Shown piece after piece: positions 10,027 through 62,897 of a stretch of DNA of 64,000 nucleotides. The notes under the pieces were generated by a model. It had not been told where the DNA came from. It worked only from the letters and a program-made list of their open reading frames with translations, and made no database searches. Numbering within the stretch: position 1 is the stretch's first letter; each line of letters starts with the position of its first letter. Source of the stretch: a virus (Duplodnaviria > Heunggongvirae > Uroviricota > Caudoviricetes); the IMG/VR virus record IMGVR_UViG_3300032304_001269, positions 10,067-74,066 of that record, one strand, 5' to 3'. The translations under genes and the position numbers were made by a program.

Positions 10027-10674
10027 ATGAAACCTACAATCGCACTATTTTTGCATGATCCAAGATGCTCAGTACAATGTGGTAATGGTATAATAAAGGC
10101 ACTGGGTCAACACTATAACTTCAAAATCTTTGGATTAAACAAAGTCGAAGACGTATTTTTTGATGACGTGGACATAGTGGCTTTTCCTGGGGGTGAAGGT
10201 GACAGCGAATCCTGGCATAGATTGCTTAAGGTCAACAAACCACAGATATTAAATTTTATTAGCCGCGGCGGTCATTATCTTGGAATTTGCATGGGGGCAT
10301 ACTGGGCAGGAAGTTATTACTTTGATATCTTAGATGAAGTGGATGCTGTTCAATATATTGCCCAACCAAATACTGACACACGTCGCCCACATGCTAAGGC
10401 AATTGATGTGGTATGGAATGGACATCCTGAAAGGATGTTTTTTTATGATGGCTGCGCCTTAGTTGGTAATAACAATAAATTTGAAACCATAGCTACCTAT
10501 GCCAATGGCGATGCAATGGCGATTATACAAAATAGAATAGGACTCATAGGATGCCACCCAGAAAGTGAAAAGTTTTGGTATGACGCTTATTATAGTTGGA
10601 TGAAACCTCATTATCATAACGGACTTCATCATAAACTTTTACTTGACTTTGTAGACAAATTATTTTATAAATAA
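10027..10674 (+). CDS. class I glutamine-amidotransferase-like (BPL_N-like) protein
   Basis: 215 aa. A GICMGAY nucleophile-elbow-like motif and a FPGGEGD motif are present. Confidence 0.45.
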
Positions 10675-35545: not shown

Positions 35546-35749
35546 ATGGTAACAGGAAAAGTAAAATGGTTTAACGACGCCAAGGGTTTTGGCTTTATTA
35601 CGCCGGACGATGGTGGCGCAGACTTATTTGCTCACTTTTCACAGATTAGTTCGAGTGGCTTCAAAAGCCTACAAGAAGGACAGAGTGTAAGGTTTGAAGT
35701 AACTCAGGGTCAAAAAGGACAACAGGCTAGTAACATTCAGCCTGCCTAA
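35546..35749 (+). CDS. cspA: cold-shock protein (CspA family)
   Basis: [15 protein letters not shown] and DLFAHFS RNP motifs; 67 aa. Confidence 0.85.
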
Positions 35750-36067
35750 GGAATTGTTGTAATCCCTTCAAAGCGAAGGCGTTCAAGACGCCGGTTCGAA
35801 TCCGGCCACCTCCACCTAAGTGTATTAGAAGTATATTTAGGTGGGGGTGCTCTGGTAATCGATTGAGCGAGATAGTGGCGACGGCAACACGGTAGGCGAT
35901 GACCGTAAATCAAGCAAAACTCGTAAATGCAAACGCAGATACATTTGACTTCAGCGCAATGAGCTTCACTGGTAACACCGTTCGCGGTGCTGCTAATGAC
36001 AGCAGATTTGCTCTAGCTGCCTAAAAAACAGCGGTCCGAGGTAGTTATACCTTGTAATCCAAAATAG
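35750..36067 (+). ncRNA. ssrA: tmRNA (ssrA), permuted two-piece gene. The acceptor piece ends at CC near 35816. The coding piece starts at GGGGGTG near 35843.
   Basis: T-arm GCCGG-TTCGAAT-CCGGC at 35790-35806, followed by the 3' acceptor strand CACCTCC, a discriminator A and CC. Downstream, GGGGGTG (35843-35849) pairs with that strand and gives the G3:U70 alanine identity pair. A tag reading frame at 35992-36024 encodes ANDSRFALAA and ends in a stop. A terminator hairpin follows. Confidence 0.7.
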
Positions 36068-36095
36068 CAGAGCCCGCTTCGGCGGGTTTCTTTTT
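36068..36095 (+). terminator. rho-independent terminator after the tmRNA
   Basis: GCCCGC-TTCG-GCGGG followed by a T-run. Confidence 0.6.
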
Positions 36096-36119
36096 GGGAT
36101 TAATTCAAGAAATAAAAGG

Positions 36120-45449: not shown

Positions 45450-45533
45450 TATAAATAAAATTGTGAATTGCACCGTCAAGGGCAGTTTATAGAGCATAGT
45501 GCTCAAATAGATCTTACTTTAAAGGAGATAGAC

Positions 45534-47432
45534 ATGTCTAAGATCATCGGTATTGACCTCGGCACCACCAACTCATGCGTGGCTGTTATCGAGAACGGAA
45601 AATCCAAAGTTATTGAGAATTCAGAAGGTGCAAGAACCACACCCTCAATTGTGGCTTATACCCCAGAAGAAATTATTGTCGGCGCTTCGGCCAAACGACA
45701 GGCAGTAACAAATCCTAAAAACACAATTTATGCCAGCAAGCGATTGATTGGTCGCAAGTTTAAAGAACAGGCTGTGCAGAAAGACCTTGATCTCATGCCC
45801 TATGAGATCTACGAAAATTCTAACGGTGATGCTTGGGTTCGAGCTCAAGGCAAAGAACTAGCACCTCCACAGATTTCAGCAGAAGTTCTACGTAAAATGA
45901 AGAAGACCGCAGAGGACTATCTGGGACATGAAGTGACTCAAGCAGTTATCACTGTGCCTGCATACTTCAATGACAGTCAACGTCAAGCAACCAAAGACGC
46001 AGGTAAGATTGCCGGCCTGGAAGTTCTACGTATTATCAATGAGCCGACAGCGGCTGCACTGGCCTATGGTGTAGACAAAGAAGACAAGAAGGATCGAAAG
46101 ATTGCTGTATATGACCTAGGCGGTGGTACGTTTGACGTAAGCATTATTGAAATTGCTAATGTGGATGGAGAGAAACAGATCGAAGTGTTATCTACCAATG
46201 GTGATACATTTCTAGGTGGAGAAGATTTCGATCAACGTATCATGGATCATCTCTGCGATGAATTCAAGAAAGAACAGGGTGTTGATCTTACCAAAGATAT
46301 GTTGGCCCTGCAACGACTAAAAGATGCAGCAGAAAAAGCAAAGATAGAATTATCTAGTAACACCAGTACAGATGTTAATCTACCTTATATCACTGCGGAC
46401 GCTTCTGGTCCGCGTCATATGAACATCAAGATCAGTCGTGCTAAGTTAGAGTCGTTGGTAGCAGAACTGGTCAATAGAAGTTTAGAGCCATGCCGTACAG
46501 CTCTCAAAGACGCAGGCGTGAGTGCCTCAGACATCGACGAAGTTATCTTAGTTGGCGGTCAAACACGCATGCCTAAGGTGCAAGAAGAAGTTGAGAAACT
46601 GTTTGGCAAAGCACCACGTAGAGATGTCAATCCAGATGAAGCAGTAGCAGTCGGTGCTGCTATCCAAGGTGCTGTATTGGGTGGTGATCGCAAAGACGTT
46701 CTATTATTAGATGTAACACCTTTGAGTTTAGGTATCGAGACTATGGGCGGTGTGATGTCAAAGATCATCCAAAAGAACACAACGATTCCAACTAAAGGAC
46801 AGCAGACGTTCTCCACAGCAGAAGACAATCAACCAGCTGTGGATATCAAAGTATTCCAAGGTGAACGTGAGCTTGTACAATATAACAAACTGTTAGGCGA
46901 ATTCAAACTAGACGGCATTGCTCCTGCACGTAGAGGACAACCACAGGTTGAGGTTACTTTTGACATTGATGCCAACGGTATCATGCACATCTCAGCCAAA
47001 GACAAGGCCACAGGCAAAGAAAACAAGATCACTATCAAGTCCAACAGTGGACTATCAGAAGCTGAAATTCAAGCTATGATCAAAGACGCAGAGTTGAATG
47101 CAGAAGCAGATAAGAAAGCTCGTACATTGATCGATACAAGAAACTCAGCAGAAGCGCAGGTACACGAAGTCAAAAAAGATCTTGAAGAATTCCGTGCAGA
47201 GCTCACAGAAGCAGAAGTCACAGAAATCGAAACTGTGATCACCGCAGTCGAAACAGCAGCCAAAGGCGATGACGCTGAAAAGATCACCGAAGAGCTCAAC
47301 AAGGTTTTCCCAGCAATGAAAACATTGTTGGAGAAAAAGCAGGCCAAGGAACAGGCAGCACAAGCACAGCCTACTCAGCCTGAAGCAGATGATGTAGTTG
47401 ATGCCAGCTTCACAGAGAAAAAGGCAGACTAA
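45534..47432 (+). CDS. dnaK: molecular chaperone DnaK (Hsp70)
   Basis: N-terminal [14 protein letters not shown], then DLGGGTFD and [22 protein letters not shown] before the ATG at 45534. The track ORF extends upstream to 45468. Confidence 0.9.
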
Positions 47433-51306: not shown

Positions 51307-53412
51307 ATGAAATTATCTAAATCAGCCATGGTGGCGCTGGCTTTCCTGTTCACCTCAGTAGCAAATGCATTTGAGTCCGGCACAGACTATAATAGTGCAA
51401 ACATGTCTTATACCGCTAATAGCACTATCAGTCAAAATATAGTATTTGATAATGCGATGCAAAGTGGTGGTACACTGACTTTTTCAGTAGAAGCACACGC
51501 AGGTGGTGGTAGAAATCTACAACACGATACCGGTCAACTCAAACTAGAATACTACAACGGCAGCACTCTACTGGGTTCAAGTACTACCAGTTATGCCACA
51601 GGTAATCTACTACAAATGAATGCCTGGAGTTCAGGTCCAGGTGACAACTCAGAACCTTGGAGTACACTATCATTGACTTCTACTGATTGTGGTACTGCAG
51701 GCAGTTGTGCCAGTGTCACTCATGTCAAAGTTATCATGATTGGTACAGATACATCATGGTGGGCAGGTAATTATGGTCCACAATGGCGTGTACCAACAGT
51801 AACATTCACACCAACAGGTGGATCGGCGGGCAGCAACATATTGTATAATCCAGAGTTTGGTCTTGATCCAACAGGTGTATTTGCACAAGGTTGGACCAGT
51901 TCTTCCAGTTGGGGTGCTTGCGGTACAACCAGTGGATCTGTAATGTGTACAACCACAGCAGCCGGCGTCACAGCAAACATGAGCGGTGGCGGCTATGATG
52001 CCAATGGTGGTACTACAGCAGCAACACCAGGTGGATATACAGGTACATTGTCAGTTACATCATTTAGCGGCAGTGGCGGCGGATCAGGAAGTGGATCACC
52101 TACTGTAACAGGAACTACAACGACCAATCAAACTACCACCAGCAACAGCAGAGGCTCAAGTACAACCGCTACCAGCACAGTTGATGGTACGGCTTCAGAA
52201 ACAGATGTAGTGACCAGAGGAACCTCAGTCACTACAGTAGTTGAAACTAGAAATCGTGGTGATCAAACAGCAAAAACTCTAACTGTTAATCAGGTGTTCA
52301 CTACCACTGTGACCACACCGGTGACCACTACAACCACTACAGTTACACCTTACACCACAACTACCACAGTCACAACACCAGTAACAGTTACTACAGTCAC
52401 AACACCAGTAACAGTTACTACATACAGTGACGGAACATCAACAACTACAAACGGTACAGCCACTACCAGTACCAGTACCAGCGATGAAGTTGTTACCAGC
52501 GTTGTAGTAGGTACTACCACAACAGTTGCGGCTGTTACTGTGGATGAGGTGCTGTCCAGTGCCACAACCACAGCATATCAGACCAGAATTGATCAGTTTG
52601 ATAGACTAGCAGAAGCTAACATACGAGAAAATTCTATGTTAGTCAGCGATCCATTAATTCGTCATAGAGCCCACGACGGTGAAATTAAATTAATAGGTGC
52701 AAATGTCAACGAACGCACTGTGTTTGATATCACAGCATCGAGATCAGGTACCGATACTGTTGACGGATATCAATCAACTGCTAATCGGTACAGTTTAGGT
52801 ATAGCACATTTGGTAAAAACTGATTTAATGATCGGCGGACAGTTTAGTCAAATTAACCTAAACATGGATGGAAATAACAGCACAGGATCTTTGTATAAAA
52901 ATGCTGTAAATTTATACGCACTATGGACTAGAAACGATTGGTTAGTCAAAGGCGATGTTGGGCATGCAAAAAATAAATTTAATACCACTCACGCACTTCC
53001 TGATTTAAATTTATCAAATAGTGCCAGTGCCGCAGGCGAAGACTTATGGGCACAGGTAAGACTTTATACCCCTGCTAAGAAAGGCGTTAGATTGTTTGCT
53101 GGTGCTAGAAAAGAACAAAATCGTCGAGACTCGGCGACTGATTCAGGATCAGCACTATCAGCAGTTGACTATGCCGCAGTTAATAAGATAACTGATACCA
53201 CCGAAGCAGGTATACGTGTTGATCATTATGTCAACGACAAGATGAGTGTGTATGCAGAATACAGCCAAAACAGTAGACAGTTAGAAACTGGCAAAGCAGG
53301 CCTGAGCTTTATTTCTAAAAAGAATGCTACTATTCAAATAGGCACTATTCAACAAAGACAAAATGATCTACGAAACAGTGGCGCGATGTTAGAGTTGAAA
53401 ATTTTATTTTAA
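51307..53412 (+). CDS. secreted Thr/Val-rich repeat protein with C-terminal beta-barrel-like (autotransporter-like) region
   Basis: Signal peptide, a long (T/V)-rich PVTVTT repeat tract, and a C-terminal amphipathic-strand domain ending in LELKILF with a terminal Phe. Confidence 0.4.
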   Translation: MKLSKSAMVALAFLFTSVANAFESGTDYNSANMSYTANSTISQNIVFDNAMQSGGTLTFSVEAHAGGGRNLQHDTGQLKLEYYNGSTLLGSSTTSYATGNLLQMNAWSSGPGDNSEPWSTLSLTSTDCGTAGSCASVTHVKVIMIGTDTSWWAGNYGPQWRVPTVTFTPTGGSAGSNILYNPEFGLDPTGVFAQGWTSSSSWGACGTTSGSVMCTTTAAGVTANMSGGGYDANGGTTAATPGGYTGTLSVTSFSGSGGGSGSGSPTVTGTTTTNQTTTSNSRGSSTTATSTVDGTASETDVVTRGTSVTTVVETRNRGDQTAKTLTVNQVFTTTVTTPVTTTTTTVTPYTTTTTVTTPVTVTTVTTPVTVTTYSDGTSTTTNGTATTSTSTSDEVVTSVVVGTTTTVAAVTVDEVLSSATTTAYQTRIDQFDRLAEANIRENSMLVSDPLIRHRAHDGEIKLIGANVNERTVFDITASRSGTDTVDGYQSTANRYSLGIAHLVKTDLMIGGQFSQINLNMDGNNSTGSLYKNAVNLYALWTRNDWLVKGDVGHAKNKFNTTHALPDLNLSNSASAAGEDLWAQVRLYTPAKKGVRLFAGARKEQNRRDSATDSGSALSAVDYAAVNKITDTTEAGIRVDHYVNDKMSVYAEYSQNSRQLETGKAGLSFISKKNATIQIGTIQQRQNDLRNSGAMLELKILF
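52367..52420. repeat. 27-bp perfect tandem direct repeat (x2) inside the Thr-rich gene
   Basis: CAGTCACAACACCAGTAACAGTTACTA occurs twice in a row, encoding VTTPVTVTT repeats. Confidence 0.8.
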
Positions 53413-55148: not shown

Positions 55149-55553
55149 TTAATTTTTTCTAGGATGGTCGATCAACCATTTCTCCAACTGTGCTAAATTT
55201 AAATCCCCGTCAAAGTGTTTCTTGAATGCCCGATAGAATCTTATCTTCTCTGGATCACCGTTGAATCGAGCCATAATCTGATCTTCTTCTAATTGTGCTC
55301 GTTGAAACTCTGGTAATAGTTCTTCATAGCTGTAATATCCAAACAGTATAAAACAAGCTAATACCGACGTTATGAAAATAAAGGCATTGATGTATTCATG
55401 GAATATGATTAGTATTGCAGGAACTAAAAATATACCAAGAATAGCACCTAATACTATTAGCAGTGTTTTAGTTACTGGATTCACTTGCCTGTTTCTCTGC
55501 TTTTTGTTGCTGTAGGAAAAGTTCGTATTCTTGCAACTTCTTTTGATGTTCAA
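55149..55553 (-). CDS. hypothetical membrane protein (possibly a C-terminal extension or frameshifted part of the upstream paralog)
   Basis: Overlaps the 3' end of 55468..56292 by 86 nt in another frame. Contains two TM segments. Confidence 0.3.
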   Translation of the reverse strand: MNIKRSCKNTNFSYSNKKQRNRQVNPVTKTLLIVLGAILGIFLVPAILIIFHEYINAFIFITSVLACFILFGYYSYEELLPEFQRAQLEEDQIMARFNGDPEKIRFYRAFKKHFDGDLNLAQLEKWLIDHPRKN

Positions 55554-56292
55554 ACCATTCTTGTTTTCTTACTTGTGCTAGTGTGTCTCTATATCTAGTG
55601 TCAGTTACACTACCCCAACGTTTTTGTGCATCGTGGGCAATCCACATAAACATGCCCATCATAACAAATACTATTATTACTGCGGCAATACCTACTGAAA
55701 TTTCAAATTGATAATGCGCCATTCGTTGTTTACGTAATCTGGCTTTTTCTATTTCTTTAACCATAAGAACTTTTTGCTGTGCTCCAAGTTCTTTGGTCAT
55801 AGATTCTACTTCTGTGTACAGCGCACCTAGTTCAGGCGGGCTTTGATATATCATTAGTTCGCGCAGTTCCTTGCCCATTTGTTCCAGTTGTTTTTGCATC
55901 AGCACACGTTTTAAGGCACGTTTGGCTAGGCTGTCACCACCTGAATATACTTCATTTTTTGATCGTTTTTCTTCGTCTTCAAGAACTGCTAGACATTTGA
56001 AATAGTTGTCATAGTATTGACCTAGATAGTCACCAATTTCTGTATAGATATTAGTGGCTTCTTCACTGCGTTTGTTTAGTTCTTTTACCCGGGTTTTTTC
56101 TTCATTGAGTTGTTTGACAGCAGCATCAGGTACTGGTTTGCCGTCATACTTTTTATGGAATTGATCATCAAGATCTTTGAGTACACCTTTTACATCGCCC
56201 GCCGCAGATTTGATGTCCTTGTAAAGTTGACACCCTTTCTTTACGGCCTGAACTGCGCCGTTGGCCAAGGCAAAGAGGGTAAACGGATCCAT
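55468..56292 (-). CDS. hypothetical protein, paralog A (C-terminal TM)
   Basis: The N-terminus MDPFTLFALANGAVQAVKKGCQLYKDIKSAAGDVKGVLKDLDDQFH is nearly identical to that of the neighbouring gene. Confidence 0.5.
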   Translation of the reverse strand: MDPFTLFALANGAVQAVKKGCQLYKDIKSAAGDVKGVLKDLDDQFHKKYDGKPVPDAAVKQLNEEKTRVKELNKRSEEATNIYTEIGDYLGQYYDNYFKCLAVLEDEEKRSKNEVYSGGDSLAKRALKRVLMQKQLEQMGKELRELMIYQSPPELGALYTEVESMTKELGAQQKVLMVKEIEKARLRKQRMAHYQFEISVGIAAVIIVFVMMGMFMWIAHDAQKRWGSVTDTRYRDTLAQVRKQEWFEHQKKLQEYELFLQQQKAEKQASESSN

Positions 56293-56316: not shown

Positions 56317-57105
56317 CTAATTATATTTATTGGGATAGCAGTCAACCCATTTCAGCCGATTATAATGTTCATATAACCACGTGCCTTTTGGTATTAGACA
56401 TATGCCTAGTTCTGGTTTGTTTTCGATCCTAATCTGAACTACAGCCCATATTAACCATACAAAATATATCACACACAATGTACTTAGACTCCAACAGGTT
56501 ATTCTATACTGTAGACGCTTTTTCCTACGTCTTGCTTGTTTAGCTTTTTCTACATTAGCTCTCATTTCGATAGCTACAGCACCAGCCTGTTCCTTGCCCA
56601 CTATTTTCATCATTTCTTCTACTTCGAGATACAACGGACCTAGTTCTGGTGGGCTTTGGTATACCATGATTTCACGTAGCTCTGCACCCATGGCATCCAA
56701 TTGTTTTCTTAATAGGACTCGTTGTAAGGCACGTTTGCCTATGCTATCTTCACCATGATAAACTTCGTACTTGCTGCGGCGCTCATCTTCGTCAAACACA
56801 GCCTTGCACTTGTAGAGATTGTCAAAGTATACACCCAATTGCTGTCCGATTTCAGTGTAGATATTAGTTGTATCACCAGCTTGTTTGTTTAAGTTGATTA
56901 CACGGTTTTTTTCTTCTATGTACTGATTCTTTTCAGCAACAGTTGGTTGACGGTCTTTGAATTTGTTATGGAATTGATCATCAAGATCTTTGAGGACATC
57001 TTTGATATCCCCAGCAGCACCCTTGATGTCTTTGTAAAGTTTGCAACCTTCCTTGACCAGTTTAACTGCGCCGTTGGCCAAGGCAAACAGTGTTAGCGGG
57101 TCCAT
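56317..57105 (-). CDS. hypothetical protein, paralog B (C-terminal TM)
   Basis: N-terminus MDPLTLFALANGAVKLVKEGCKLYKDIKGAAGDIKDVLKDLDDQFH. Collinear similarity to paralog A runs through the QSPPELG region. Confidence 0.5.
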   Translation of the reverse strand: MDPLTLFALANGAVKLVKEGCKLYKDIKGAAGDIKDVLKDLDDQFHNKFKDRQPTVAEKNQYIEEKNRVINLNKQAGDTTNIYTEIGQQLGVYFDNLYKCKAVFDEDERRSKYEVYHGEDSIGKRALQRVLLRKQLDAMGAELREIMVYQSPPELGPLYLEVEEMMKIVGKEQAGAVAIEMRANVEKAKQARRRKKRLQYRITCWSLSTLCVIYFVWLIWAVVQIRIENKPELGICLIPKGTWLYEHYNRLKWVDCYPNKYN

Positions 57106-57202
57106 TTATCGCTCCGAAATCCCTACTATACTGTTATTTACTTACTTGACAGATTTGTAAACTGGTGCTATAATATGAGTATATTTCTATAAAAGAGGAT
57201 CT

Positions 57203-58063
57203 ATGAAGATCAAACTTGTATCTGATTTGCATTTAGAATTCAGCGATTGCTTTGTCACAAACAACGACAACTGCGATGTGTTAATTCTAGGCGGCGATAT
57301 TATGGTGGCCCAGGATTTGCACGATCATCCAGAACCCTCTAATTCCGCAGATCAAATGGCGATTGCCAACAATACAGGATTAGGTCGTAGGCAGGCCAAT
57401 GCACAACGTTTCCGTGACTTCCTGAAGCGTTGTAGTTTCCAATTCCCTCACGTTATCTTTATTGCCGGCAACCATGAATTTTACAATGGCAAATTCTATG
57501 CTGGCATTGATTACCTACGTGAGGAGTGTGCTAAGTATCCTAACATTTATTTCTTAGAACAGGATACTAAGATTATCGACGATGTTGTATTTGTTGGCGG
57601 AACACTTTGGACCAATATGAATCGTCGTGATCCGCTTACAATGCATGCCATTGAAGGTATGATGAACGACTTCCGTATTATTCGTAACGATAAGAGAAAC
57701 TATGCCACTATGAGTCCGTTGGATGTTGCTGTACGTCACGATAGAACACTAGGCTATATCAAACTGATTGTTCAAGAAAACAAAGACAAACGGTGTGTGG
57801 TTGTTGGTCATCACAGTCCTAGCTTTCAAAGTGTACACCCGATGTATGCTCATGAAACGCTGATGAACGGTGGCTACCACAGTGACCTCAGTGAGTTCAT
57901 CTTGGATCATCCGCAGATCAAACTGTGGACACATGGTCATACTCATCATCCGTTTGATTATATGATCGGTGAGACTAGAATCGTGTGTAATCCGCGCGGT
58001 TATGAAAACGATGGTTATAGCGAACACACTGGATGGGATCCAGAGAAAGTAATTGAAGTATGA
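57203..58063 (+). CDS. calcineurin-like metallophosphoesterase
   Basis: VSDLHLE ... LILGGDI ... AGNHEF ... GHTHH motifs. Confidence 0.6.
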   Translation: MKIKLVSDLHLEFSDCFVTNNDNCDVLILGGDIMVAQDLHDHPEPSNSADQMAIANNTGLGRRQANAQRFRDFLKRCSFQFPHVIFIAGNHEFYNGKFYAGIDYLREECAKYPNIYFLEQDTKIIDDVVFVGGTLWTNMNRRDPLTMHAIEGMMNDFRIIRNDKRNYATMSPLDVAVRHDRTLGYIKLIVQENKDKRCVVVGHHSPSFQSVHPMYAHETLMNGGYHSDLSEFILDHPQIKLWTHGHTHHPFDYMIGETRIVCNPRGYENDGYSEHTGWDPEKVIEV

Positions 58064-59931: not shown

Positions 59932-60170
59932 TAGCAGACCAAATGGCTACCTGGTTGATAGGTAGTATTTTATTTGCATTGGGCAGTTTGGTGCTGGTGT
60001 TTGGATTGATATTGATCAACAACCTCTTGCACAAATATTGGAAACCTGTAACTGTGATAATGTTTAGAAATGAAAGCGTCTATCCAAAAATGCGTTACAG
60101 CACCCCAGAAGATTTTGAACACAAAGAACCCAGATTAGAGCAGGAAAAGATTGACAAAAATACATCTTGA
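59901..60170 (+). CDS. small membrane protein
   Basis: 89 aa with one TM helix. Confidence 0.3.
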   Translation: MRTYKGKRTMIADQMATWLIGSILFALGSLVLVFGLILINNLLHKYWKPVTVIMFRNESVYPKMRYSTPEDFEHKEPRLEQEKIDKNTS

Positions 60171-60213
60171 TGTTATCATTGTTGTATAGCTTATCACCAT
60201 CGAAAGGAATCAC

Positions 60214-60774
60214 ATGATCACTATCAAAGACTTTATGACCACCGTGAATTATCGCATCACTGAAGGCAGTGACTACGGCTGGCAATGTTATGGACCCGAT
60301 GCCTATAGACTAGATTCTTGGAATGGTGATCAGGATGGTCATTCTATCAGTATGGTATTCGACACTCGCACTCAGGTCGTTTATGAAATCAGTGCCTATG
60401 ACTATGTCAACGAACGTGCCTATCGCTGGATCAATCCAGAATACCGATCTGCTCATGACAACGAATCAGAAAATCGAGGTGTGATTGTTGATCAAGCGTG
60501 GGACGATGTCAACTACACTGATCTTGAAGTGGCCGAAGATATGTTGGAAAAAGCCCGTGCTATTGCAGCCGAAGAAGACTATGATACTCGTGTACAAGTT
60601 CCTGTAGAGTTCACAGATCAAGAAATGCTGACCTATATGAAGTTGGCTCACGAACTTGATATCACATTCAACGAATTAGTTGAGAGAGCACTTAAAGAAG
60701 CTATTTTGGCATACGAAGAAGATCTCACACACAACAAACCTAAAAAACACAAGAAGAAAAAGAAAGATCGATAA
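60214..60774 (+). CDS. hypothetical acidic protein with Lys-rich tail
   Basis: 186 aa; C-terminal KPKKHKKKKKDR. Confidence 0.4.
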   Translation: MITIKDFMTTVNYRITEGSDYGWQCYGPDAYRLDSWNGDQDGHSISMVFDTRTQVVYEISAYDYVNERAYRWINPEYRSAHDNESENRGVIVDQAWDDVNYTDLEVAEDMLEKARAIAAEEDYDTRVQVPVEFTDQEMLTYMKLAHELDITFNELVERALKEAILAYEEDLTHNKPKKHKKKKKDR

Positions 60775-61103
60775 TGACCACAGAGTCACAGAAATTCTTA
60801 GAAGATCTCAAGACCGGAGTTCGATATGTAGTAATCAATGACTGCTACGGAGGCTTCGGTCTCAGTGATCGTGCTCGTGAAGAATACAAAAAAATGGCAG
60901 GTATCACAGATCCCAGTTGGTATGATCGTGATGTGGCCAGAGACGATCCCTATCTGGTCAAGATAGTCAAAGAGCTAGGCTCTGCTGCCAGCGGCAGTCA
61001 TGCTAAACTCAAAATCGTGGAAATTCCAGGAGATGTAGAATGGCATATTTCTGATTATGACGGTGCAGAGCATGTGGCCGAGGATCACAGGACTTGGAAA
61101 TGA
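60774..61103 (+). CDS. hypothetical protein
   Basis: 109 aa. Confidence 0.4.
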   Translation: MTTESQKFLEDLKTGVRYVVINDCYGGFGLSDRAREEYKKMAGITDPSWYDRDVARDDPYLVKIVKELGSAASGSHAKLKIVEIPGDVEWHISDYDGAEHVAEDHRTWK

Positions 61104-61414
61104 GCAAGCCTGTGGTCATGCTTCCTGAGCAATGGCATCGTGTTCTTGAACGTATCAAACAACGAGAAAAGCCAAGTGTGTATCTTTCTAGATCAAGAAT
61201 GAAAGAAGTGCTGGGCTTTACTGTGCGTGATCATAGAGAGTATGTCAAAGACCCCGACTATGTAAGCCGTCCACAAGATAAAGATGAATGGTTTTACATG
61301 GAACCAAGTGGATGGTTTGAAGGCAAAATGAATGTGCATACCGTTCGATTGGATTTCTACGATGAACAGAAACGCACAATGTTTCTATTAAAATATGGCA
61401 ACGGACAAGATTAA
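61094..61414 (+). CDS. small protein, tandem paralog family member 1
   Basis: C-terminal LDFYDEQKRTMFLLKYGNG shares the family motif. Confidence 0.45.
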   Translation: MEMSKPVVMLPEQWHRVLERIKQREKPSVYLSRSRMKEVLGFTVRDHREYVKDPDYVSRPQDKDEWFYMEPSGWFEGKMNVHTVRLDFYDEQKRTMFLLKYGNGQD

Positions 61415-61646
61415 AATTGGTTCTCTCAATGAGATCCTAGCAACACGAGTTAGAACAATTTACCCCTATCGTGTGAACTTCGATAATATTACACGCAATC
61501 AAATTGAAGAAATGGCCACATGGTGCATTAACAACTGCAAAGACCTATGGCGAGAAGAACATTATCACGCACTGTACTTTCAATTTACAGATGATTATGA
61601 TGCCATGATGTTTATGCTAAAGTTTGGCGGAAGAGGCACGGTATGA
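61395..61646 (+). CDS. small protein, tandem paralog family member 2
   Basis: WCINNCKDLW followed by YFQFTDDYDAMMFMLKFGGRG. Confidence 0.45.
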   Translation: MATDKIKIGSLNEILATRVRTIYPYRVNFDNITRNQIEEMATWCINNCKDLWREEHYHALYFQFTDDYDAMMFMLKFGGRGTV

Positions 61647-61903
61647 AAGATCTAGAACAGGATATCTTATATGAACTCAGCACATCAATGCAGAGTGAAA
61701 TAGATCGAGAAATACTTTGGGGTATGCTGAAAAATATGGGTTGGCGCAGAGTAAATTTGGATAGATTTAAAGACAACGTGCATGCCGTGAACATCACAGA
61801 TTGGTTGGCAGAACACTGCAATCATGCCTTTGAAAGAAGAGGCGCAGACTTTATCTTTGAATCTGAGGTTGATGCAGTGAATTTTACCCTGAGATGGCAG
61901 TAA
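61643..61903 (+). CDS. small protein, tandem paralog family member 3
   Basis: WLAEHCNHAF followed by IFESEVDAVNFTLRWQ. Confidence 0.45.
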   Translation: MKDLEQDILYELSTSMQSEIDREILWGMLKNMGWRRVNLDRFKDNVHAVNITDWLAEHCNHAFERRGADFIFESEVDAVNFTLRWQ

Positions 61904-62271
61904 TAAACACCAAAGGTTATCAATTTGGACCTGCCCAGGGTTACCTAGGTCCTATACCTAAAGAAGATACATATAGGTATATGATAATCAATGATCGAGT
62001 AGAAGAAGTACGAGAGATAGTGGTACACGAATTCGACATGGGCGATGTTGAAGATCCTGATCTGTATGCTGCTGAACCACTTTGGCAATGGCAAGAGAGT
62101 GAGAGTGGAAAGTGGATTATGGAACATGCAGTCGAGACCCCAATGTGGCATAGATCTACGGATCCATATGCTTACGGATACAAGTATCTTATCAGTGCCA
62201 AACTAGCAGGCCCTGCTCTTACAGAATGGTTATTAAGATACGGGGATTCCAATTGGAAAAAGCCAAATTGA
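61894..62271 (+). CDS. hypothetical protein
   Basis: 125 aa, sitting inside the small-gene array. Confidence 0.4.
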   Translation: MAVINTKGYQFGPAQGYLGPIPKEDTYRYMIINDRVEEVREIVVHEFDMGDVEDPDLYAAEPLWQWQESESGKWIMEHAVETPMWHRSTDPYAYGYKYLISAKLAGPALTEWLLRYGDSNWKKPN

Positions 62272-62453
62272 TGTCTATTTTGGATTCCTATCATGTAGTC
62301 AGATTGGATAGAGATGAAAACTATAACAAAAAACTAACTTGGTGCATGGAACACTGTCAACATAAATTTCGAGATATAAAAGAATCCAATTGTCGAGCTT
62401 GGTATTTTCAAAATGAACAAGATGCTGCTATGTTTGCTATGAGATGGTCGTGA
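62226..62453 (+). CDS. small protein, tandem paralog family member 4
   Basis: WCMEHCQHKF followed by WYFQNEQDAAMFAMRWS. Confidence 0.45.
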   Translation: MVIKIRGFQLEKAKLMSILDSYHVVRLDRDENYNKKLTWCMEHCQHKFRDIKESNCRAWYFQNEQDAAMFAMRWS

Positions 62454-62671
62454 TAGTTGTATATCTCAACGACACTGATATCCCCTACGAACAAGCTGAA
62501 GAATATTTTGCCGAAGCAGCGGCATGGGCCACCCGACAATGTTCTAGTTACTTTGATTACTATGTTCAAGACGTTATCGACGTTTCTCTCACCAACGATT
62601 TTGTCACTGCTTATTATTTCAAAGATCCAAATGATGCTTTGCTATTCCAAATAAAATGGAAAACTAGTTGA
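62444..62671 (+). CDS. small protein, tandem paralog family member 5
   Basis: WATRQCSSYF followed by YYFKDPNDALLFQIKWK. Confidence 0.45.
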   Translation: MVVIVVYLNDTDIPYEQAEEYFAEAAAWATRQCSSYFDYYVQDVIDVSLTNDFVTAYYFKDPNDALLFQIKWKTS

Positions 62672-62897
62672 CATAATTCTTGTTCGGTGTTATAATAGTA
62701 TATCATTTAATAACGAAAGCATACTATGGCAGGCAAAGCGAAATCAGTTTACTTAACAGTGACTACATTAGATCACAAAACAGTATTTCATCGTATGTTT
62801 TTTAACGCAAAAGAATTTAATGAATTTGTAAAAACTGATGAGTTCAAAGCCAAGTACCCCTCGACAGAATTTAAAATCGTGAAAGAAACCTATTAAT

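Follow-up and report, generated by a model that had tools for sequence, protein, structure and literature searches.

What a close-packed row of small genes with similar 3′ ends encodes, and whether these genes are copies of one another, is the question raised by a stretch of viral DNA from the Caudoviricetes record IMGVR_UViG_3300032304_001269 (positions 10,067–74,066; 64,000 nucleotides, hereafter the window, from whose first nucleotide all coordinates are counted). Based on a listing of open reading frames (ORFs) and on reading of the sequence, we identified five members of this row on the + strand, designated A (61100..61414, 104 residues), B (61395..61646, 83 residues), C (61643..61903, 86 residues), D (62226..62453, 75 residues) and E (62444..62671, 75 residues, isoelectric point (pI) 4.1). 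The best explanation for the locus is that it is a reduced copy of a tandem multigene array, made up of five members of one family plus one unrelated gene. A preliminary description had reported five consecutive ORFs; all five are present at the positions given there, but gene X (61894..62271, +, 125 residues), which shows no detectable relation to the family, separates C from D. The start of A most likely corresponds to the ATG at 61100, which forms an ATGA overlap with the upstream stop codon, rather than to the TTG at 61094 given in that description, which is a possible start. Junctions along the unit overlap by 4, 20, 4, 10, 46 and 10 nucleotides in order, some of them as ATGA. Because neighbouring genes all overlap start to stop, the translational coupling originally proposed is plausible.

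The shared C-terminal ending provided the first line of evidence for common ancestry. The motif search covered the 615 six-frame ORFs of the window, with expected counts obtained from shuffles. The strict motif DAxxFx[LMI][KR][WFY] occurs in exactly four of these ORFs, namely B, C, D and E, where the expectation is 0.01; in each of them it forms the C-terminal end. A looser motif that takes in A matches five ORFs against 0.155 expected. The five endings are exactly as quoted in the preliminary description; member A, which belongs to a divergent 'DEQKRTMFLLKYG' subtype, carries K-R instead of the D-A pair. The upstream tryptophan/cysteine/aromatic element attributed to four of the five proteins was likewise found in B, C, D and E (WCINNCKDLW, WLAEHCNHAF, WCMEHCQHKF and WATRQCSSYF), but its spacing is W-x4-C-x3-[WF] and not W-x3-C-x3 as first written.

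An all-versus-all BLASTP comparison, which had been suggested together with an assessment of motif significance, gave significant matches for C–D (E = 5e-6), B–D (1.5e-4) and D–E (2e-3), whereas A–B reached 0.047. A jackhmmer-derived profile, seeded with D and extended with paralogs from three related phage contigs, matched B, C, D and E at E values of 1e-13 to 4e-24. The same profile reached A at E = 9e-11, and on this basis A is a true family member. A profile of B–E identified no further member within the window. By these sequence comparisons, the five genes are distantly related copies of one family. The alternative, that a chance motif unites unrelated short ORFs or even non-coding sequence, has in its favour only the low pairwise identity of the members (20–39%); it is refuted by the motif counts, the BLASTP and profile results, the breadth of the family and the signs of selection described below, and we regard it as extremely improbable.

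The family extends far beyond this window. When 1.84 billion cluster representatives were searched exhaustively with HMMER, 699 proteins matched at E ≤ 1e-3, each representing a cluster at 50% identity; among the 150 of these matches that were listed, nearly all are 50–130 residues long and a few contain two domains. A profile search of 5.8 billion proteins yielded hundreds of unnamed metagenomic orthologs without Pfam domains. In a comparison of 102 diverse members, the most conserved positions were W39 (100%), F70 (99%), an aromatic residue at position 48 (99%), F61 (97%), D66 (95%) and W74 (94%), followed by R/K73 (88%), A67 (85%), L72 (84%), C40 (79%), C44 (66%) and N43 (62%), whereas surface positions were variable. 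We considered a metal site formed by the two cysteines and rejected it; these residues are only 79% and 66% conserved and are absent in A, and are therefore not a defining feature of the family.

The preliminary description did not recognise the family, and the database searches bear this out. Pfam and PHROG scans of the 102 members returned no family match, apart from capsid-related hits considered below and a few isolated matches of single members, and NCBIfam, PADLOC and PDB sequence-profile searches gave nothing significant. A match to a cullin winged helix in the PDB profile search (E = 0.66) was rejected. Searches of GenBank phages by tblastn with D, two further members (P0403 and P0347) and the family consensus produced nothing significant; only D gave matches, to four Aeromonas phage records at E = 0.5–0.6. 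Megablast of the array region against the same phages found no match, a BFVD search matched only uncharacterised viral proteins, and no description of the family was found in the literature. A DNA pattern that encodes both motifs degenerately was found in 14 IMG/VR contigs, versus one 2.2-kb contig of a metagenome-assembled genome in 185,579 cellular genomes, and the family is thus essentially confined to viral contigs. The family itself appears not to have been described before; such tandem expansions in large phages are already known (PMC7824862).

Among the lineage-specific expansions of small domains that jumbo phages carry is that of Bacillus phage G, with about 35 copies of a zinc ribbon (Iyer et al, 2021; PMC7824862). 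The present array resembles such expansions: one small domain recurs many times, in tandem or nearly so, within the genome of a very large phage, with function to be read from context. It differs from the phage G case in that its domain is not a zinc ribbon but has a predicted alpha/beta fold with only two partly conserved cysteines, and in that the family is spread across hundreds of uncultured phages and not confined to one genome.

For the fold itself, AlphaFold2 models were built for two members, C (predicted local distance difference test score (pLDDT) 80.0, predicted template modelling score (pTM) 0.65) and D (pLDDT 74.8, pTM 0.54), and both present the same order of elements. By this structure prediction, which had been suggested at the outset, both proteins form a common, single compact domain that ends at the C-terminus and is composed of a helix, a strand, a second helix (W-C-x-E-N-C-x-G-x-aromatic), a beta-hairpin and a C-terminal helix (F-E-D-E-x-D-A-x-x-F-x-L-R/K-W). 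The invariant aromatic residues are predicted to build the core, with an acidic turn preceding the last helix. The conserved part is C-terminal; from one paralog to the next, the N-terminal segment is free to vary, as is much of the surface.

This topology recalls the ACT, RRM, KH and DCoH-like two-layer alpha/beta sandwiches but lacks their fourth strand, and the likeness is at the level of generic fold. On this alternative, the proteins would be small domains of these types with a regulatory function or with nucleic acids or other ligands as binding partners, acting as modulators of phage transcription or translation. However, none of the corresponding signatures (the GXXG loop of KH, RNP1/RNP2 of RRM, or a four-stranded beta-alpha-beta-beta-alpha-beta arrangement) and no Pfam match to such domains was found in the family. 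The pI of members ranges from 4.1 to 8.9 with no conserved charge, which argues against a shared role in nucleic-acid binding, and we consider this alternative improbable.

Comparison with relatives revealed turnover in the copy number of the array. The same locus was examined in contigs of 178–384 kb, designated here by L numbers. The orthologs sort into 11 paralog subfamilies, among which D is the most widespread and most conserved (118 clusters) and A is represented by 55 orthologous clusters; D is kept in all relatives examined. Each paralog has orthologs of its own in the relatives, which makes the paralogs ancient. Copy number differs widely: five in the window, seven in each of L005 and L011, at least seven in L009, where one further ORF with the family ending is visible beyond the seven, 11 in L007 and 14–15 in L001. 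Viral loci found by the DNA pattern contain 16 (L027) and 14 (L032) members, and the more distant contig L020 at least 12. Even L009, whose gene order matches that of the window and whose proteins are about 90% identical to those encoded there, contains three additional genes in the interval from C to X.

The ratio of non-synonymous to synonymous substitution rates (dN/dS) had been proposed for comparison among the paralogs; we computed it instead between the window genes and their L009 orthologs. The values fall between 0.05 and 0.18 (A 0.12, B 0.05, E 0.10), which identifies these as real genes under purifying selection. D gave 0.55, but on the basis of very few changes and with 46 nucleotides shared with X.

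These data also bear on the possibility that the array consists of largely selfish or neutral gene cassettes, generated by unequal recombination in a permissive region with occasional capture of gene fragments (capsid, P-loop) and with little individual function. The differing copy number even between relatives about 90% identical in amino-acid sequence would be expected under this scenario, as would the N-termini with fragments that resemble other proteins, namely the capsid-like segments described below and a P-loop-like piece. The latter, a 'GRQTGKS' or 'GRNSGKS' N-terminus similar in appearance to the Walker A region of a terminase or helicase, is present on long forms of two subtypes (P0170, P0188 and L007:6081-6524). 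Its origin from a terminase or helicase was explored and discarded, as Pfam gave no match and tblastn returned either nothing or a helicase at E = 0.2–0.4. The P-loop fragment is thus not traceable to a source, which speaks against the selfish-cassette scenario, as do the clear purifying selection on every window member, the retention of D in all relatives examined and the absence of any nuclease or recombinase domain. We assign a low probability to this scenario.

A more specific alternative emerged from the N-termini of some family members, which resemble the gp23-type major capsid protein (PF07068). The clearest case is the family protein P0426, which passes the Pfam Gp23 threshold (36 bits versus a cutoff of 24.4, E = 6.6e-9). 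It matched 112 phage records by tblastn, and in all 25 of the matches listed the match lies in or beside the major-capsid gene, although three of these are annotated as 'hypothetical protein' and one as 'DNA polymerase I'. Identity among the 25 is 40–52% over 40–48 residues in jumbo phages and about 27% elsewhere; residues 10–49 match the major-capsid genes of Atu_ph07, PA5oct and Phosso, and residues 2–49 match that of Vibrio phage 2.275.O.

In the window, the resemblance is localised to C, whose N-terminal ~40 residues form a long helix similar to the spine helix of gp23-type capsid proteins. When six capsid proteins were compared by hhalign with a C-type subfamily profile that has window C among its members, about 40 residues aligned with their spine-helix region (probability 91%, E = 1.2e-6). 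A hidden Markov model (HMM) of the capsid protein selected C as the only window match below E = 0.1 (E = 0.012), and orthologs of C at 2e-4. Two other family proteins, P0121 and P0417, carry the capsid N-arm motif 'IANxIxGVQPM', with P0121 matching the capsid HMM at E = 1e-4. Capsid-like N-termini were found in about 12% of sampled clusters. Beyond the helix, the best continuation of the alignment is collinear but non-significant ('RRGADFIFESEV' versus 'KRGPANWAVVSNT'), and the likeness of the C-terminal motif to capsid 'RWTFEAAQD' (10 columns, E = 0.13) is a lead only. No window member reaches E < 1 against PF07068, and none is a full-length HK97-fold capsid protein.

A piece of the capsid protein may be the ancestor of the whole family; alternatively, the capsid-like helices may be later acquisitions of some of its members. 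According to the first version of this idea, the family, or at least its C-type subfamily, would stem from a gp23-type fragment comprising the spine helix and the adjoining A-domain core and would function in capsid biology, for instance in regulating or chaperoning head assembly, in poisoning the assembly of competing phages, or in shielding the capsid protein from host immune sensors that recognise it, by masking or as a decoy. The P0426 matches to Gp23 and to capsid genes, the hhalign result, the selection of C by the capsid HMM and the N-arm motif all favour this origin; taken together with its proposed roles, we nevertheless judge it rather unlikely. A narrower and quite unlikely variant holds that an exapted fragment (spine helix plus adjoining strand-helix) was duplicated into early-expressed arrays, whose members would be mimics of capsid protein. 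Such mimics may pre-load or blind capsid-detecting immune sensors or disturb the head assembly of co-infecting phages, and the subfamilies would present different capsid epitopes, the spine helix in the C-type and the N-arm 'GVQPM' in the P0121-type.

The expression context was examined through promoter-like sequences. We identified four near-consensus sigma-70 sites on the + strand, at 57146, 58564, 60151 and 62668, all in intergenic gaps and three of them TG-extended. The site at 60151..60179 (TTGACA-17-TATCAT, TG-extended, 11 of 12 consensus positions) lies in the gap before the gene starting at 60214 and is probably the start of the array's transcription unit. The site at 62668..62696 (TTGACA-17-TATAAT with TG, a perfect 12 of 12) overlaps the stop codon of E and would start the next unit. 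The array unit would accordingly run from 60151 to 62668 and include, besides the array, the gene at 60214 and the 'CYGGFGLS' gene at 60774. The four sites suggest a series of strong units driven by the host polymerase, and from the promoter-like sites that flank the unit we infer early expression by host RNA polymerase. Together with the differences in copy number and the restriction to viruses, these flanking promoters fit an accessory early-gene region.

We tentatively propose, with somewhat less than even confidence, that the members of the family are modules that bind proteins, are expressed early and serve host takeover or anti-defence, the type of function to which the preliminary description had also pointed; the early timing, the binding function and the targets are those that we infer. 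The family would comprise phage-specific, small cytoplasmic proteins of 60–110 residues encoded by a tandem multigene array, and the array would be expressed early by host RNA polymerase from strong sigma-70 promoters. The C-terminal strand-helix and tryptophan helix would form the conserved core, whereas the variable N-terminal part and surface would direct each paralog to its own host or phage target, so that the paralogs would serve in host takeover or counter-defence.

A comparable locus is the hyperplastic internal protein (IP) locus of T4-type phages, in which variable small accessory genes are gained and lost between relatives in a phage with a gp23-type capsid, and of which one product, IPI*, acts in anti-defence. 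IP proteins have a conserved N-terminal capsid-targeting sequence and variable bodies. The present array resembles this locus as a variable set of small accessory genes with gain and loss; unlike the IP proteins, its members are, in our alignments, conserved at the C-terminus and variable at the N-terminus.

Several observations weigh against a set of early-expressed modules with individual targets. No homolog of known function was found in the searched databases. The D orthologs are 57–95% identical across more than 100 clusters, so that orthologs show no sign of the rapid change expected in an arms race. Polar residues are conserved at E42, N43, E62, D/N63, E64, D66 and R/K73, and these could reflect a ligand common to all paralogs instead of a separate target for each. 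The prediction of early expression comes only from promoter-like sequences, and the helix by which C resembles the capsid protein suggests a role in capsid biology instead.

Whichever function applies, a single unannotated family of 699 clusters takes up kilobases in large uncultured phages, where one locus can hold as many as 16 of its genes in tandem, and its alignment and fold model offer a handle to annotate thousands of 'hypothetical' phage genes. The array members form a candidate set for screens of host-takeover or anti-defence activity. The capsid-like helix of some members would be an unusual reuse of a structural-protein segment in small accessory proteins and, if functional, would tie the family to ongoing studies of how bacterial immunity senses capsid proteins.

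Gene X had been considered as a sixth member, because its 'GKWIMEH' was likened by eye to 'TWCMEH', but this was not supported; comparison with the family gave no significant relation (hhalign E ≥ 0.15, HMM E = 7). Its dN/dS between the window and L009 is 0.17. In the relatives examined, X immediately precedes D (L001, L007 and L009–L011), the exception being L005, where a 2-oxoglutarate-Fe(II) oxygenase gene is inserted between the two. X and D form a conserved pair, in which the 3′ end of X overlaps D by 46 nucleotides in another frame in both the window and L009.

The unit begins with a gene (60214..60774, +) for a 186-residue acidic protein of unknown function with a lysine-rich tail, which has orthologs in L001 and L009 and a dN/dS of 0.23. 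The 'CYGGFGLS' gene (60774..61103, +) encodes a 109-residue protein that matches phrog_16527 (function unknown; E = 1.4e-25) and follows the pattern 'CYGGFGLS...IVEIP...EW.I..YDG.E...E.HR.W'. Its orthologs are located at L001:1441-1905, L005:5536-5856, L007:4833-5159 and L009:7871-8200; in the window, L001 and L009 the gene immediately precedes the array, but in L005 and L007 it sits between family members, one of them being on its 5′ side. A few kilobases upstream of the array, L005 (1131-3185) and L007 (1-1435) encode a CHASE2-guanylate/adenylate cyclase protein, whose gene adjoins that of a metallophosphatase; a metallophosphatase is also encoded in the window (57203-58063).

The window as a whole is part of a very large phage-like genome with a guanine-plus-cytosine content of about 41% and nearly all genes on the + strand. 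It encodes a fragment of the DNA polymerase III alpha subunit (PolIII-alpha), ribonucleotide reductase, Hsp70/DnaK, an SPFH protein, an autotransporter-domain protein and a transfer-messenger RNA (tmRNA). Megablast against 50,697 GenBank phage records found no match, and the closest record by PolIII-alpha is an uncultured 484-kb phage at 36% identity. The tmRNA (35714-36115, +) was identified by ARAGORN, with a long tag peptide, and scores 144 bits against Rfam beta_tmRNA and 130 bits against tmRNA_permuted; this betaproteobacterial type may hint at the host. The Hsp70/DnaK homolog (45468-47432, +) is full-length (PF00012, E = 6e-258). The autotransporter-domain protein (51307-53412, +; 701 residues) contains a signal peptide, a long threonine-rich repeat region and an autotransporter beta-domain (PF03797, E = 7e-10); such a protein is unusual for a phage, the only phage match being a cyanophage autotransporter-domain protein. 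Finally, a paralogous pair on the − strand, opposite to almost all else (55468-56292 and 56317-57105; 274 and 262 residues, 47% identical, E = 1e-80), is a second instance of gene duplication; the two proteins begin almost identically, with 'MDP(F/L)TLFALANGAV', and have a transmembrane segment at the C-terminus.
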